From Escherichia coli (GTDB taxonomy: Bacteria; Pseudomonadota; Gammaproteobacteria; Enterobacterales; Enterobacteriaceae): DNA of 64,000 bases. The DNA lies in the NCBI RefSeq assembly GCF_036507355.1, contig NZ_AP027877.1. One strand, 5' to 3'. The notes beneath the pieces were generated by a model that saw only the letters and a list, made by a program, of their open reading frames with translations, had not been told where the DNA came from and did not search any database. The translations under genes and the position numbers were made by a program. This document shows, in pieces, positions 44,769-60,142 of this stretch (the first letter of the stretch is position 1; the number at the start of each line of letters is the position of its first letter).

Positions 44769-44797
44769 GATAATTGTTATCGTTTGCATTATCGTTA
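44769..44797. promoter_or_regulatory. Fur box in the cirA promoter
   Basis: gataattgttatcgtttgcattatcgtta closely matches the Fur consensus GATAATGATAATCATTATC. Confidence 0.75.
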
Positions 44798-48764: not shown

Positions 48765-49922
48765 ATGGAGCGCAACGTCACGCTCGATTTTGTTCGCGGC
48801 GTCGCCATTCTGGGGATCCTGCTATTAAACATCAGCGCCTTTGGGCTACCAAAGGCGGCTTATCTTAATCCCGCCTGGTACGGCGCTATTACGCCGCAGG
48901 ATGCATGGACCTGGGCATTTCTCGATCTCATCGGCCAGGTGAAATTCCTCACGCTTTTTGCGCTGCTGTTTGGTGCTGGCCTGCAAATGTTGCTGCCCCG
49001 TGGCAGACGCTGGATCCAGTCGCGGTTAACGCTGTTAGTCTTGCTGGGCTTTATTCACGGTTTATTGTTCTGGGACGGCGATATTCTGCTGGCTTACGGG
49101 CTGGTGGGCTTAATCTGCTGGCGGCTGGTGCGCGATGCGCCATCGGTAAAAAGCCTGTTTAATACCGGCGTCATGCTTTATCTGGTGGGGCTTGGCGTTT
49201 TGCTGTTATTGGGGTTGATTTCCGACAGCCAGACCAGCCGCGCCTGGACGCCGGATGCATCGGCTATTTTGTATGAAAAATACTGGAAGCTTCACGGCGG
49301 CGTTGAAGCGATCAGTAATCGTGCCGATGGTGTTGGCAACAGTTTACTGGCACTGGGCGCACAGTATGGCTGGCAACTGGCTGGGATGATGCTCATTGGT
49401 GCCGCATTGATGCGCAGTGGCTGGCTGAAAGGGCAGTTCAGCTTACGTCACTATCGTCGTACTGGTTTTGTGCTGGTGGCGATTGGGGTGATCATTAACC
49501 TTCCTGCCATCGCCCTGCAATGGCGGCTGGACTGGGCATATCGCTGGTGCGCCTTCTTACTTCAGATGCCGCGGGAACTGAGTGCGCCGTTTCAGACGAT
49601 TGGCTATGCGTCGCTGTTTTATGGCTTCTGGCCGCAATTGAGCCGCTTTAAGCTGGTGCTTGCGATCGCCTGCGTCGGACGGATGGCGCTGACCAACTAT
49701 CTATTGCAAACGCTGATTTGTACCACGCTTTTTTACCACCTCGGTTTGTTTATGCATTTTGACCGCCTGGAGCTGCTGGCGTTTGTTATTCCGGTATGGC
49801 TGGCGAATATCCTCTTCTCTGTTATCTGGCTGCGTTACTTCCGCCAGGGGCCGGTGGAATGGCTCTGGCGTCAGTTAACTTTGCGTGCTGCCGGACCGGC
49901 AATATCTAAAACATCAAGATAA
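48765..49922 (+). CDS. yeiB: DUF418-family inner membrane protein YeiB (385 aa)
   Basis: Polytopic membrane ORF 16 bp downstream of folE. Confidence 0.85.
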   Translation: MERNVTLDFVRGVAILGILLLNISAFGLPKAAYLNPAWYGAITPQDAWTWAFLDLIGQVKFLTLFALLFGAGLQMLLPRGRRWIQSRLTLLVLLGFIHGLLFWDGDILLAYGLVGLICWRLVRDAPSVKSLFNTGVMLYLVGLGVLLLLGLISDSQTSRAWTPDASAILYEKYWKLHGGVEAISNRADGVGNSLLALGAQYGWQLAGMMLIGAALMRSGWLKGQFSLRHYRRTGFVLVAIGVIINLPAIALQWRLDWAYRWCAFLLQMPRELSAPFQTIGYASLFYGFWPQLSRFKLVLAIACVGRMALTNYLLQTLICTTLFYHLGLFMHFDRLELLAFVIPVWLANILFSVIWLRYFRQGPVEWLWRQLTLRAAGPAISKTSR

Positions 49923-49950
49923 CGATCTGGATCACATTCGTTAACAAAAC

Positions 49951-49987
49951 GGCTGTAACCGTTTCCATTGCTGTGACTCGATTCACG
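49951..49987. promoter_or_regulatory. galS promoter elements: gal-type operator half-sites plus CRP site
   Basis: gctgtaaccgtttccattgc is gal-operator-like; TGTGActcgatTCACG (49972-49987) fits the CRP consensus. Confidence 0.6.
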
Positions 49988-50063
49988 AAGTCCTGTATTC
50001 AGTGCTGACAAAATAGCCGCCAGCAAGCAGTCATTTACTGCAATCTCATAACAGGTAGTGAAT

Positions 50064-51104
50064 ATGATCACCATTCGTGATGTAGCGCGTCAGGCTGGCG
50101 TCTCTGTGGCAACGGTTTCCCGGGTGCTCAATAACAGCACGCTGGTCAGTGCCGATACGCGTGAAGCAGTAATGAAAGCCGTGAGTGAGCTGGATTATCG
50201 GCCAAACGCCAATGCCCAGGCGCTGGCAACTCAGGTTAGCGACACCATTGGCGTGGTGGTGATGGACGTTTCTGATGCGTTTTTCGGCGCGCTGGTAAAA
50301 GCGGTGGATCTGGTCGCTCAGCAGCATCAGAAATACGTGCTAATCGGCAATAGCTATCATGAAGCGGAAAAAGAGCGTCACGCCATTGAGGTGTTAATTC
50401 GCCAGCGTTGTAATGCGTTGATTGTTCACTCAAAAGCATTGAGTGACGATGAACTGGCGCAATTTATGGATAACATTCCCGGTATGGTGTTAATCAACCG
50501 CGTTGTGCCGGGGTACGCCCATCGTTGCGTTTGCCTGGATAATCTCAGCGGTGCCCGAATGGCGACGCGCATGTTGCTGAATAACGGTCATCAACGTATT
50601 GGTTATCTTTCTTCCAGCCACGGCATTGAAGATGACGCCATGCGTAAAGCAGGCTGGATGAGTGCGTTGAAAGAGCAGGATATTATTCCGCCGGAAAGCT
50701 GGATTGGCACTGGTACGCCGGACATGCCGGGCGGTGAGGCGGCGATGGTTGAACTGCTGGGGCGCAATCTACAACTTACCGCTGTATTTGCTTATAACGA
50801 CAATATGGCTGCTGGCGCACTGACAGCATTAAAAGATAATGGCATTGCGATTCCGTTACATCTCTCAATCATCGGTTTCGATGATATTCCCATCGCCCGT
50901 TACACCGACCCGCAATTAACGACCGTGCGTTATCCCATTGCTTCAATGGCGAAATTAGCCACCGAACTGGCCTTGCAGGGGGCAGCAGGCAATATTGATC
51001 CTCGTGCCAGCCACTGTTTTATGCCGACGTTAGTGCGTCGCCATTCTGTCGCAACACGCCAGAATGCGGCGGCGATCACTAACTCAACAAATCAGGCGAT
51101 GTAA
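50064..51104 (+). CDS. galS: Galactose isorepressor GalS, LacI family (346 aa)
   Basis: [28 protein letters not shown] followed by periplasmic-binding-protein-like domain. Confidence 0.92.
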
Positions 51105-51132
51105 CCGCTTTCAATCTGTGAGTGATTTCACA
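51093..51132. promoter_or_regulatory. mglBAC control region: gal/mgl operator overlapping the galS stop codon, plus CRP site
   Basis: atGTAACCGcTTTCAa operator-like sequence at 51099-51114; TGTGAgtgatTTCACA (51117-51132) is a perfect CRP consensus. Confidence 0.7.
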
Positions 51133-51384
51133 GTATCTTAACAATGTGATAGCTATGATTGCACCGTTTTAACGTTGTAACCCGTATGTAACAGTGAATA
51201 ATCACTTTCACCGAGGTAATAGCGTCATAACAACAATTAAAGCCGTTTTCTGGAGCGTTACCGGGCATGGAAGAACGAATTTTTAAAAAGTGAGCTTCGG
51301 CGTTCAGTAACACTTCATTAACTCTACTGCCCCGCCGAGCATTTATCTCAAGCACTACCCTGCATAAGAAAAACCGGAGATACC

Positions 51385-52383
51385 ATGAATAAGAAGGTGT
51401 TAACCCTGTCTGCTGTGATGGCCAGCATGTTATTCGGTGCCGCTGCACACGCTGCTGATACTCGCATTGGTGTAACAATCTATAAGTACGACGATAACTT
51501 TATGTCTGTAGTGCGCAAGGCAATTGAGCAAGATGCGAAAGCCGCGCCAGATGTTCAGCTGCTGATGAATGATTCTCAGAATGACCAGTCCAAGCAGAAC
51601 GATCAGATCGACGTATTGCTGGCGAAAGGGGTGAAGGCACTGGCAATCAACCTGGTTGACCCGGCAGCTGCGGGTACGGTGATTGAGAAAGCGCGTGGGC
51701 AAAACGTGCCAGTGGTTTTCTTCAACAAAGAACCGTCTCGTAAGGCGCTGGATAGCTACGACAAAGCCTACTACGTTGGCACTGACTCCAAAGAGTCCGG
51801 CATTATTCAAGGCGATTTGATTGCTAAACACTGGGCGGCGAATCAGGGTTGGGATCTGAATAAAGACGGTCAGATTCAATTCGTACTGCTGAAAGGTGAA
51901 CCGGGCCATCCGGATGCAGAAGCACGTACCACTTACGTGATTAAAGAGCTGAACGACAAAGGCATTAAAACTGAACAGTTACAGTTAGATACCGCTATGT
52001 GGGATACCGCTCAGGCGAAAGATAAGATGGACGCCTGGCTGTCTGGCCCGAACGCCAACAAAATCGAAGTGGTTATCGCCAACAACGATGCGATGGCAAT
52101 GGGCGCGGTTGAAGCGCTGAAAGCACACAACAAGTCCAGCATTCCGGTGTTTGGCGTCGATGCGCTGCCAGAAGCGCTGGCGCTGGTGAAATCCGGTGCA
52201 CTGGCGGGCACCGTACTGAACGATGCTAACAACCAGGCGAAAGCGACCTTTGATCTGGCGAAAAACCTGGCCGATGGCAAAGGTGCGGCTGATGGCACCA
52301 ACTGGAAAATCGACAACAAAGTGGTCCGCGTACCTTATGTTGGCGTAGATAAAGACAACCTGGCTGAATTCAGCAAGAAATAA
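51385..52383 (+). CDS. mglB: Periplasmic D-galactose/glucose-binding protein MglB (332 aa)
   Basis: Signal peptide [23 protein letters not shown] followed by a type I periplasmic binding fold. Confidence 0.93.
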
Positions 52384-52443
52384 GACTGATTGGGCGCAGT
52401 CTATTACTGCGCCCTTATTGTATGGCCAACAAGGTAAAATTAT

Positions 52444-53964
52444 ATGGTCAGCTCAACGACTCCGTCTTCCGGGGAATACTTGTTGGAAATGAGCGGTATC
52501 AACAAGTCTTTTCCTGGTGTTAAGGCACTGGATAACGTTAATTTAAAAGTCCGGTCACATTCTATCCATGCATTAATGGGGGAAAACGGTGCAGGAAAAT
52601 CAACATTATTAAAATGCCTGTTTGGTATTTATCAAAAAGACTCCGGCACCATTTTATTCCAGGGTAAAGAGATCGATTTCCATTCTGCAAAAGAAGCCCT
52701 GGAAAATGGTATTTCGATGGTACACCAGGAGTTAAACCTGGTATTACAACGTTCGGTGATGGATAACATGTGGCTGGGGCGATATCCCACCAAAGGCATG
52801 TTTGTCGATCAGGACAAAATGTACCGCGAAACCAAAGCGATTTTTGATGAACTGGATATTGATATCGATCCGCGTGCGCGCGTCGGCACATTATCTGTTT
52901 CGCAAATGCAGATGATCGAAATCGCCAAAGCGTTTTCCTATAACGCGAAAATTGTGATTATGGATGAACCGACTTCTTCGTTAACCGAAAAAGAGGTCAA
53001 TCATCTGTTCACTATTATTCGTAAATTAAAAGAGCGCGGCTGCGGTATTGTTTATATCTCGCATAAAATGGAAGAAATCTTCCAGTTATGTGATGAAGTT
53101 ACCGTATTGCGCGACGGTCAGTGGATCGCCACCGAACCGCTGGCAGGGCTGACGATGGACAAGATTATCGCCATGATGGTTGGGCGTTCTCTTAACCAGC
53201 GTTTTCCTGACAAAGAAAACAAGCCGGGCGAAGTCATCCTCGAGGTGCGTAACCTGACGTCACTGCGCCAGCCGTCGATTCGCGATGTCTCGTTTGATCT
53301 GCATAAAGGGGAGATCCTCGGTATTGCCGGTCTGGTGGGGGCGAAACGTACCGATATTGTTGAGACGTTATTTGGTATTCGCGAGAAATCGGCTGGCACC
53401 ATTACGTTGCACGGCAAAAAGATCAATAACCATAATGCCAATGAAGCCATAAACCACGGATTTGCACTGGTAACTGAGGAGCGCCGCTCAACGGGAATTT
53501 ATGCCTATCTGGATATTGGTTTTAACTCGTTAATTTCCAATATTCGCAACTACAAAAATAAAGTTGGTTTACTGGATAACTCGCGGATGAAAAGCGATAC
53601 CCAGTGGGTGATTGATTCGATGCGGGTAAAAACACCGGGGCATCGGGCGCAAATTGGTTCGCTCTCAGGTGGTAATCAGCAAAAGGTGATTATTGGGCGC
53701 TGGCTACTAACGCAACCGGAAATATTAATGCTCGATGAACCGACGCGCGGTATTGATGTCGGGGCGAAGTTTGAGATCTATCAGTTAATTGCCGAACTGG
53801 CGAAGAAAGGCAAAGGGATTATTATTATCTCCTCTGAAATGCCTGAGTTGTTAGGGATAACAGACCGTATTCTGGTCATGAGCAATGGTCTCGTTTCCGG
53901 AATTGTCGACACAAAAACAACAACGCAAAACGAAATTCTGCGTCTTGCGTCTTTGCACCTTTAA
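52444..53964 (+). CDS. mglA: Galactose ABC transporter ATPase MglA, two ABC domains (506 aa)
   Basis: Walker [10 protein letters not shown] and LSGGNQQK signature. Confidence 0.93.
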
Positions 53965-55232: not shown

Positions 55233-56468
55233 TTACAACGTTACCGGGTGTTCTTTCTCGCCTTTCTTAAACTTCACTTCCCCGAGCTCAATACAACCCA
55301 CCGGGCAGACGTGACCACAAAGCAGGCAACCAACACATTTCTCGGTATTACAATACGGTGTACGGGTTTTCTCGCTCCATTCCATCGCCTGGTGACCGCC
55401 GTCGTAACAGGAAATATAACAGCGTCCACAGCCAACACATTTATCAAGATTGATACGGGGATAGACAATATAACTGCGGTCTAAATCTTCCGCCGGGACA
55501 ATATTGTTATTCGCCAGACCTACCATCTCCTGCAACGAATCAAATCCCTGATCGGCGAGATAATGCGACAACCCGCTCGCCATATCTTCCACTATCCGAT
55601 AGCCGTACTGCATAATGCCGGTGGTGACCTGTAACGTTGCTGCGCCGAGCAATAAAAACTCCGCCGCATCCTCCCAGGTTTCAATGCCGCCGATACCGCT
55701 GATTGGGAAATCGCGCAGTTCTGGATGGGTGCGCATTTGCTGAATGAAGCGCAGGGCGATCGGTTTTACCGCTTTACCGGAATATCCGGAAATACTCGAT
55801 TTTCCGTTAACGATCGGCATACCGATTTTCTGATTAAGATCGATATTGGTGATGGATTTAACGGTGTTAATCGCCGCAATGCCATCTGCGCCGCCGCGCT
55901 TCGCCGCCAGCGCCACTTCGCACATATCACCGATATTCGGCGTCATCTTCGCCAGCATTGGCAGCGTGGAACCCCGTTTCACTGCCCGACAATATTTTTC
56001 TACTAGCTCCGGGCTTTGCCCGACATCGCTACCCATCGCATGAGAAGTCATTTGCGGACAGGAGAAGTTACACTCGATCATATCCGCGCCAGCTTCTTGC
56101 ACCAGGCGCGCCAGCTCCTCCCATTGCTGCTCATTTTCCCCCATGATCGAAGCGATCAATACTTTGTCCGGGTAATCTTCCTTCAGCCGACGCAGGGCGG
56201 CCAGATTCTCTTCCAACGGATGTTCAGCAATCTGCTCCATATTTTTGAAGCCGATAAAACCGGTATCTTCTTTCACCAGATGATCAAAACGCGGCGAGAC
56301 TTCGTTGGCGATAAAAAAGCCGATCGTTTTAAACACCACACCGCCCCAACCTGTGTCGTAGGCTTTGGCACACATCTCATAGCAGTTGCCTACCGGCGAA
56401 GAAGAGAGGCAGAATGGGTTGGGAAACTTCACGCCGCAAAAAGTAATCGAAAGATCTTTCGTTAACAT
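55233..56468 (-). CDS. preA: NAD-dependent dihydropyrimidine dehydrogenase subunit PreA (411 aa)
   Basis: Dihydroorotate-dehydrogenase-like TIM barrel plus C-terminal 2x[4Fe-4S] ferredoxin cysteines. Confidence 0.9.
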
Positions 56469-57700
56469 GAGCAAGCTCCCTCTAAATAGTAATGAATCGC
56501 CTCGGCGGCTTCTTTCCCGGTTTTCACGGCATAGACCACGGTTTTGTCACCCTCAACAATATCGCCAGCAGCAAAGACTTGCGGATCGCGGGTCTGATAA
56601 TTTTGTGTTTTGATGGTGTTACGCTGCGGCTCTAACTCCGCAAAGGCATCCAGTCTGGCATGCTGACCGACGGCGAGAATAATTTTATCTGCCACCATCG
56701 TCAGTTCGCCCGATAACCGTACATGCTTAAACGTGACTTTATTGCCTTCCACGGCTACTGGCGTGAATCCATCGATGATCGAAACGCCCAGCTCCCGGGC
56801 GCTGGCAAACTCTTTTTCGCTTGCCGGAAACTCATCTAACTCTTCACGCGCTACGCAAGTTACCGCCTGACAGCCGAGAACTTTCAGCGTGCTGGCTACG
56901 TCCATCGCGACATCACCGCCGCCGATAATTAATGCGCTTTGTGGAATGCTGATATCGCCTTGCACCTGTCGTGCACGTTGCAGGAAGTCCACGGCAATCT
57001 CAACGTCGCTATGCTCAAACAGCGGTAGCCCGGAACCGCTTGATAACCCCACGGTGACCAGTACCGCGCGGTTTTCCGCTTTCAGTTGCTCCAGGGTTAG
57101 TGTTTTACCGACTTCGTTGTTGCACTTAATGGTCACGCCCATTTTTTCAATACGGGCGATCTCTGCATCCAGTACTGATTGCGGTAACCGGAATTGCGGA
57201 ATGCCGTTACGCAACCAGCCACCGGGTTGTGCTTCTTTCTCATAGATCGTGACGTCATAACCCTGGTTTGTCAGTGTCACACTGGCCTGCAATCCGGCAG
57301 GACCTGCGCCAATAATCGCGACTTTGCCGAGCGTTTTAGTACCGGGCTGATAAATTTCCATCCCGGTTTGTTGTTCAAAATCAGTAACAAAACGCTGTAA
57401 GCGGCCGATATCAATGGGAGCATCAACACCGGCACGGGTACAACCGCTTTGGCATAATTTCTCCGTCGGGCACACTCTGGCACAAACGGCACCGAGGGCA
57501 TTATTTTCGCGAATTGTCTCGGCAGCGCCTTTAAAATTACGAAAGTAGATTGAGCGAATAAATTTCCCCGGATCGGTCTGTGCCGGGCAAGCCTGACTAC
57601 AGGGAGCGTCGTGACATAATAAACAGCGAGAGGCTTCTTTAATCGCCAGTAACGGCGTAAAAGCCGGAGTGAGTTCATCCAGATAATTTTGTTGCGGCAT
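56462..57700 (-). CDS. preT: NAD-dependent dihydropyrimidine dehydrogenase subunit PreT (412 aa)
   Basis: N-terminal Fe-S cysteines and GltD-like FAD/NAD-binding domain (IIGAGPAG); 7-nt overlap with preA. Confidence 0.9.
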
Positions 57701-57737
57701 GTGATCTTCCTTAATGCTATGAGTAATTAAGGCGAAC

Positions 57738-57872
57738 GCTAATATACTCGTCATACTTCAAGTTGCATGTGCTGCGTCTGCGTTCGCTCACCCCAGTCAC
57801 TTACTTATGTAAGCTCCTGGGGACTCACTCACTTGTCGCCTTCCTGCAACTCGAATTATTTAGAGTATAAAT
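57738..57872. repeat. ERIC (IRU) enterobacterial repetitive intergenic element
   Basis: Contains cgctcaccccagtcacttactt and atgtaagctcctggggactcac, matching the ERIC2 and ERIC1R consensus cores, within an imperfect palindrome. Confidence 0.75.
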
Positions 57873-57916: not shown

Positions 57917-57932
57917 TGTGAAAGGATTCACA
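57917..57932. promoter_or_regulatory. Perfect CRP consensus site upstream of preT
   Basis: TGTGAaaggatTCACA, about 217 bp upstream of the preT start. Confidence 0.5.
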
Positions 57933-58017: not shown

Positions 58018-60013
<1,996 letters not shown>

Positions 60014-60142
60014 GGCGTTGCCTCATAATCATGTAATGGGATAACAGTTTACGAACCCGTTATGGCTTTATATGTGATCTGAATCTCATTAATTATGCAA
60101 CGCGTGAAACTTACATCAAAAATGCGCGACGCATCGCAAATT

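Follow-up and report, generated by a model that had tools for sequence, protein, structure and literature searches.

The galS-mglBAC junction

The galS-mglBAC junction of E. coli is located at about position 51,100 of the window, that is, of the whole 64-kb stretch of DNA that was analysed, as indicated by a 2.5-kb match with annotated galS, mglB and mglA genes. A sequence search found this 2.5-kb stretch in 5,425 of 5,426 complete E. coli genomes, and the gene order of the K-12 record (galS, mglB, mglA) is the same as in the window. The coding features of the junction are the following:

50064..51104, plus strand: galS CDS, stop codon included, encoding a LacI-family galactose isorepressor of 346 aa (open reading frame list and RefSeq annotation)
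51084..51101, plus strand: C-terminal extension of GalS, codons 341-346 (S T N Q A M), found exclusively in sequences whose galS extends into the operator
51102..51104, plus strand: galS stop codon TAA, which corresponds to operator positions 4-6
51385..52383, plus strand: mglB CDS, periplasmic galactose/glucose-binding protein

The Pfam domains of GalS are the LacI helix-turn-helix (residues 3-48) and Peripla_BP_3 (residues 169-329). The 3' end of the gene reads ...CAG GCG ATG TAA, the final sense codon being the ATG at 51099-51101. From the end of galS through the promoter the junction is identical to that of K-12 MG1655, and the differences between both sequences (three substitutions and a 1-nt indel) are all located further down the mglB leader. 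Due to this identity the coordinates can be converted directly, window position 51104, where the galS CDS ends, being K-12 2240628. Conservation within the species is also high: the 40-bp stretch 51093-51132 is present without any change in 5,380 of the 5,425 complete E. coli genomes holding the locus, and the 161 bp surrounding the operator-CRP pair show 100% identity with many E. coli strains. As regards the strain itself, the top identity of window 50000-52500 among the 5,426 complete genomes is 99.5%, so this strain is not exactly represented among them.

No intrinsic terminator was found between the galS stop and the mgl promoter (window 51105-51165), which begin 0-12 nt apart, and galS transcripts must consequently run into the mgl operator, promoter and leader. 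On the minus strand, a hairpin resembling a terminator (51096-51108) was rejected, as it is the operator dyad read on the wrong strand.

The mgl operator and the CRP site

Downstream of the last galS codons, and partly within them, a compact control region is found with these elements:

51099..51114, no strand assigned: mgl operator ATGTAACCGCTTTCAA, a GalS/GalR site of 16 bp centred at 51106.5 (K-12 2240625.5)
51117..51132, no strand assigned: CRP core TGTGAGTGATTTCACA (also written TGTGAgtgattTCACA), within a 22-bp site at 51114-51135 centred at 51124.5 (K-12 2240607.5)
51154..51159, plus strand: putative mglB promoter -10 element TATGAT, near-invariant and at a fixed distance from the CRP site
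51166..51167, plus strand: predicted transcription start, placed from the position of the -10 element
51167..51384, plus strand: mglB 5' leader of about 218 nt, with conserved blocks

The first 6 bp of the operator are the last codon and the stop codon of galS. Its 14-bp core, TGTAANCGNTTNCA, is matched without mismatches at 51100-51113, and only 2 such cores exist in the 64-kb window, where 0.03 would be expected, the second one belonging to the promoter of galS itself. The gal operator consensus has been described as a 16-bp hyphenated dyad, GTGNAANC.GNTTNCAC (PMC5110547), and ATGTAACCGCTTTCAA agrees with it at 10 of the 12 specified positions, the differences being restricted to the outermost positions 1 and 16. 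Mutations at positions 3, 5, 9 or 15 are known to inactivate gal operators, and all these positions are intact in the mgl operator (G3, A5, G9 and A15). The element is near-invariant in about 200 related loci, in the form ATG/GTG-TAACCGNTTYCAA.

The CRP site matches TGTGA-N6-TCACA at 10 of 10 core positions (51117-51132). Core-perfect sites of this kind occur twice in the window against 0.07 expected. The distance between the operator and the CRP core is 3 nt when counted from the 14-mer core and 2 nt from the 16-mer; the centres of both sites are 18 bp apart, and the 16-bp operator abuts the 22-bp CRP site. In about 200 loci, which represent many genera, both CRP half-sites and the 18-bp spacing essentially do not vary. 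Furthermore, in an alignment of 81 loci from many genera, the near-invariant blocks are the operator, the two CRP half-sites, the stretch just past the CRP site and TATGAT.

Most of what the initial annotation had read from the sequence is confirmed by these coordinates. The operator does start within the last galS codons, since 51099-51114 includes the ATG and the TAA. The statement that a perfect CRP site follows 3 bp later holds for the gap past the 14-mer core, and the word perfect for the 10 core positions only, as the flanks of the 22-bp consensus are poorly matched. In the same way, the 40-bp stretch proposed there contains both motifs, whereas its start at 51093 is located 6 nt upstream of the operator proper.

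Promoter and leader of mglB

A consensus -35/-10 pair was sought at the mglB promoter and none was found, which is the expected situation if it is a class II CRP-dependent promoter. With the start placed at 51166-51167, the centre of the CRP site would fall at about -41.5 to -42.5, and that of the operator between about -59.5 and -60.5. The literature search yielded no published start coordinate for mglB. Related to this, Reg-Seq has described a mutation at '+30' of mglBp that creates a consensus -10; this latent -10 fits the near-consensus AATAAT at 51197-51202, which is consistent with a start at 51166-51167.

The leader of mglB has been reported to be about 250 bp long (PMC3119520). Several of its blocks are conserved in Enterobacteriaceae, for instance 51185-51200, 51249-51265 and 51350-51384. 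No Rfam family was matched in 50900-51500, and the predicted fold of the leader is not more stable than those of shuffled sequences (z-score -0.25).

Published evidence and mode of regulation

The mglBAC promoter/operator of E. coli K-12 was reportedly described by Hogg in 1991 and by Weickert and Adhya in 1992 and 1993, and the 1997 work of Geanacopoulos and Adhya is said to be among the primary mgl footprinting and transcription papers. It is the same locus as the one analysed here, and a published GalR site as well as adaptive mutations map onto the window.

The GalR ChIP-chip peak at K-12 2240625 was assigned to mglB with the inferred site TTGAAAGCGGTTACA(T), and TTGAAAGCGGTTACAT was listed at K-12 2240618-2240633 (Qian et al. 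2016). This K-12 site is window 51099-51114 on the other strand, TTGAAAGCGGTTACA being window 51100-51114, and because the galS CDS of K-12 ends at 2240628, 6 bp of the documented GalR site are within galS. By comparison of coordinates, the in vivo repressor occupancy observed for GalR coincides with the operator, and the documented positions are therefore those anticipated by the initial annotation.

Experimental evolution has provided a second line of evidence. A G-to-T change 3 bp past the end of galS leads to semi-constitutive mglBAC expression (Kinnersley et al.), and the identical operator change swept every glucose-limited chemostat vessel (Kinnersley et al. 2021). This mutation maps to window 51107, the G of the central CG, which is operator position 9. 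A mutation in the CRP site was also obtained (Kinnersley et al. 2021); it maps to window 51124, in the CRP spacer. The operator/CRP region of mgl is a recurrent target in the adaptation to glucose limitation, hence its practical importance.

With respect to activation, mglB is induced by cAMP, serves as a representative of canonical CRP-dependent genes and needs cAMP-CRP in vivo. It was used as a CRP positive control in Reg-Seq, where footprints of CRP and RNAP were seen at mglBp, and a blueprint analysis of the Reg-Seq data shows only CRP and RNAP sites at this promoter, with no operator, under the reported conditions. The ChIP-chip site, the chemostat mutations and the cAMP dependence all agree with the known regulation of mglBAC by GalS/GalR and CRP, which the initial annotation had recognised.

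That the pair of motifs might be a chance resemblance devoid of function has a negligible probability. The general caution that consensus matches arise by chance is all that can be said for it, whereas the numbers expected per window (0.03 and 0.07), the published occupancy and mutations, and the invariance of the pair across genera argue against it. The region is almost certainly the documented mglBAC control region, made up of a GalS/GalR operator and a probable class II CRP site, the overlap with galS being a by-product. Repressor occupancy, de-repression by operator mutation and CRP dependence have been shown in published work, and no evidence contradicting the identification was found. 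The operator/CRP finding is already known, textbook regulation, and its value is mainly that of a positive control for the reading of motifs from raw sequence.

Two parts of this scheme are inferred by us, namely the exact start site and the mode of repressor interference. cAMP-CRP bound to the core-perfect site, some 41.5-42.5 bp upstream of the start, would activate the mglB promoter, which would belong to class II since it has a good -10 (TATGAT) and no usable -35. When galactose is absent, a dimer of GalS (mainly) or GalR on the operator, 18 bp further upstream, would block the CRP-dependent activation, and galactose would release the repressor. As the operator abuts the 22-bp CRP site, repression most likely takes place by interference with CRP-dependent activation. 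This interference could consist of the exclusion of CRP, the exclusion of the RNAP alpha C-terminal domain upstream of class II CRP, or a block of open-complex formation. A cited account states that GalS prevents open-complex formation (Kinnersley et al. 2021).

The galS stop codon and the operator across relatives

The relationship between the end of galS and the operator was analysed in 80 loci from species-representative genomes, retrieved with MglB as query, and in 120 further loci from metagenomes, retrieved with the operator-plus-CRP pattern as query. The end of galS was called by walking each open reading frame to its first stop, and 165 unique full-length galS sequences were compared. 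The numbers of unique sequences in which galS ends on the operator TAA (346 aa) are:

GalS identity of at least 94% (Escherichia-like): 26 of 26
GalS identity of 80-94%: 1 of 109, a Cedecea
GalS identity below 80%: 22 of 30

The intermediate group comprises Citrobacter, Salmonella, Klebsiella, Enterobacter, Kluyvera, Kosakonia and others. In 108 of its 109 unique sequences the galS stop precedes the operator core by 4-16 nt (13-16 in most of them) and is usually a TGA or TAA at codon 341 or 342, and the operator, the CRP site and the spacing between them are unchanged in the loci without the stop overlap. Within the region, conservation is lowest in the 15 nt that code for STNQA, and the tail of GalS is not part of the Pfam effector domain, whose last residue is 329. 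The 346-aa tails of distant relatives, e.g. TCA ACC GAT TCT GCG GTG TAA, are recognisably homologous to that of E. coli, TCA ACA AAT CAG GCG ATG TAA. A loss of the stop specific to Escherichia was rejected because 22 of the 30 distant loci have the 346-aa form with a homologous tail. The overlap is probably ancestral and was lost in most Enterobacteriaceae, the direction of the change being deduced here without a tree.

It could be argued that the overlap itself is functional and couples the expression or the tail of the regulator to the target site, as would be the case if the bound repressor formed a roadblock to galS read-through or if the tail were needed. The fixation of the overlap in Escherichia (all the unique sequences, and the exact stretch in 5,380 of 5,425 genomes), its presence with a homologous tail in most of the distant relatives, and the obligation of galS transcripts to traverse the operator when there is no intrinsic terminator would all fit with such a role. 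We consider it most improbable, given that nearly the whole intermediate group stops earlier with operator, CRP site and spacing unchanged, and that the tail-coding nucleotides are the least conserved and are placed beyond the last Pfam domain.

The preferred reading, in which the overlap is a by-product, would explain these patterns in a simple way. The operator carries ATG TAA in the galS frame, so that a galS gene without an earlier stop would read 6 codons further and end on the TAA; the overlap would then be a by-product of the compactness of the intergenic region, labile in evolution, and not a functional coupling. The stop overlap is real but ordinary, and it is absent from most related genera. 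The comparison of sequences points to a one-way constraint, in which the operator sets the last codon (ATG or GTG) and the TAA, and the tail of GalS imposes nothing visible; this conclusion is drawn from the operator being the same with or without the overlap, from the low conservation of the STNQA nucleotides and from the position of the tail outside the folded domain. The earlier idea that the overlap constrains both regulator and target is accordingly reduced to one half: the operator does fix the last galS codon and the stop, but the tail places no constraint on the operator, and a mutual constraint finds no support in about 109 unique galS-mglB loci that lack the overlap and have an identical operator. 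An operator with an in-frame TAA acts as a back-stop terminator, which leaves the length of the repressor tail free while the operator stays fixed. This comparative result on tail and operator adds a small point to the known regulation.

As a side observation, the galS matches of Escherichia albertii NBRC 107761 (locus L004, about 1180-1401) and Citrobacter amalonaticus (locus L009, 1179-2200) are split into 2-3 frames, which suggests a frameshift or disruption of the gene, or an assembly error. The mgl operator and the CRP site are intact in both genomes.

A candidate second CRP-like element and the galS promoter

Upstream of the operator, inside the galS coding sequence, another conserved motif was detected. 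The promoter of galS contains a similar set of elements:

51065..51080, no strand assigned: candidate second CRP-like element TGCGGcggcgaTCACT, galS codons 334-339, at about -93.5 of mglB
49954..49967: gal operator core of the galS promoter, TGTAACCGTTTCCA, in the yeiB-galS intergenic region
49972..49987: CRP core of the galS promoter, TGTGACTCGATTCACG, with one mismatch (TCACG)
49921..49936: CRP-like element of the galS promoter, AACGAtctggaTCACA, within the conserved intergenic block GATAACGATCTGGATCACATT

The candidate element in galS has the form TG(T/C)GG-N6-TCACT, with TGTGG in most genera and TGCGG in E. coli; its half-sites are conserved and its spacer is free. In practically all of about 200 loci the main CRP core follows 52 bp (occasionally 51) downstream of it, and this distance holds even at 66% GalS identity. 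Of 175 unique regions, 105 have a core with at most 2 mismatches to CRP at this place, against a frequency of 6.6e-4 per position elsewhere in these genes. When 3 mismatches are allowed, the number rises to 174; three mismatches are also what the copy of E. coli shows.

Synonymous positions are also unusually conserved at this point, in the last codons that all GalS proteins have in common. In third-position conservation, codons 337-340 rank first among 337 four-codon windows, and they do so again on the 165 unique galS sequences, their third-position minimum being 0.92 as compared with 0.78 in the next window and a mean of 0.65 for the gene. In codons 334 and 335 the conservation of the third base reaches 99-100%, against 45% and 63% for the amino acids encoded, and the third base of codon 336 is at background (0.52). 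Promoters of mgl without galS upstream (Yersinia type) were sought as well, but all 120 of the 120 metagenome hits had a galS-like gene upstream, and the intergenic galS promoter was therefore used as a coding-free substitute.

In the galS promoter, the distance from AACGAtctggaTCACA to the CRP core downstream of it is exactly 51 bp in 179 of 183 loci. Both promoters are alike in having the operator followed by the CRP core, with 19 bp from centre to centre in galS and 18 bp in mgl, and in having a CRP-like element upstream of the CRP core, at 51 bp in galS and 52 bp in mgl. They differ in that the galS elements are intergenic, the CRP core has one mismatch and the promoter drives the regulator instead of the transporter.

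These observations raise the possibility, which we regard as tentative and rather doubtful, that mglBp and galSp are both tandem-CRP promoters with the gal operator between the two sites. In that case, the part of galS universally locked into mgl regulation would be the candidate element and not the stop codon, a second CRP site would be added to two well-studied promoters of the gal regulon, and the footprint at '-95' of galSp would be explained. This footprint comes from a Reg-Seq preprint, which describes, besides the known CRP site, an activator 'around -95' at galSp without naming the factor; AACGAtctggaTCACA is located about where it falls, and under the tandem reading the activator may be CRP. 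At mglBp, the analyses of the Reg-Seq data (-115 to +45) show only the CRP and RNAP sites and the latent start, with no footprint on the candidate element, and the literature search found no description of a second CRP site at mglB.

A further gal operator, GTGGCAACGGTTTCCC, is located at 50106-50121 in the region of galS coding for the helix-turn-helix, and it is the published 'OI (galS)' (K-12 2241611-2241626). There are consequently gal operators before, inside and at the end of galS.

Taking this distribution into account, it could be proposed that the site at the end of galS works mainly for galS itself, as the distal looping partner among the three gal operators (49953-49968, 50106-50121 and 51099-51114), which bracket and penetrate the gene. 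Moreover, the same site carries different labels in two tables, 'OE (galS)' and 'mglB' (Qian et al. 2016), and it is under the former name that it appears in the 3C table among the operators in long-range GalR contacts. Such a main role is very unlikely in our opinion: the site is 18 bp from the CRP site of mglB, a spacing that is invariant in all loci, the operator mutation up-regulates mglBAC, and the ChIP table of Qian et al. assigns the site to mglB. In any case, a looping function of this kind would add to the control of mgl, not replace it.

Comparison with known systems

The lacI-lacZYA junction has a comparable organisation, in which the auxiliary operator O3 extends over the end of lacI (last codons and stop) and the lac CRP site is located immediately downstream. 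The finding of the coding end of a regulator within the operator of its target is therefore not unique to galS-mgl. O3 is an auxiliary looping operator and the lac CRP site is of class I (-61.5). Unlike lac O3, the mgl operator is the sole operator next to a probable class II CRP site.

Promoters controlled by CytR and CRP, such as cdd and deoP2, have the site for a LacI-family repressor between two CRP-type sites that are 50-53 bp apart. One of them, the cdd promoter, is present in the window on the minus strand at 60073-60138 and served as an example of tandem CRP-type sites, with TGAGAttcagaTCACA and the upstream TGCGAtgcgtcGCGCA separated by 50 bp from start to start; the CRP-type cores start at 60088 and 60138, upstream of a 294-aa ORF at 59129-60013 (cdd). 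The promoters of mgl and galS resemble the CytR promoters in the spacing of the CRP-type elements (52 and 51 bp, respectively, against 50 at cdd). They differ in that the upstream site is a candidate known as a conserved motif only, and in that the gal operator abuts the main CRP site instead of being midway.

Other gal- and CRP-like sites in the window

Apart from the elements discussed above, several other motifs deserve mention. The CRP-like AGTGAatatgaTCACC at 50057-50072 covers the ribosome-binding region and the start codon of galS, and more than 70 related loci have a CRP match with at most 2 mismatches here as well. The second of the two core-perfect CRP sites of the window, TGTGAAAGGATTCACA, was found at 57917-57932; it is flanked by two ORFs on the minus strand, 56462-57754 and 58018-58257, the former of which starts about 160-200 bp downstream of it. 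These two ORFs are presumably preT and yeiS.

A conserved GATC at 51074-51077 was considered as part of a second gal operator, an idea that was dropped since a dyad match to the gal consensus is absent; its reading as a Dam site was also considered. Finally, TTGTTATCGTTTGCAT at 44774-44789 resembles a gal operator with 1 mismatch. After conversion of the coordinates it corresponds, to within 1 bp, to 'F13' (K-12 2246944-2246959), one of the GalR contact sites of Qian et al.
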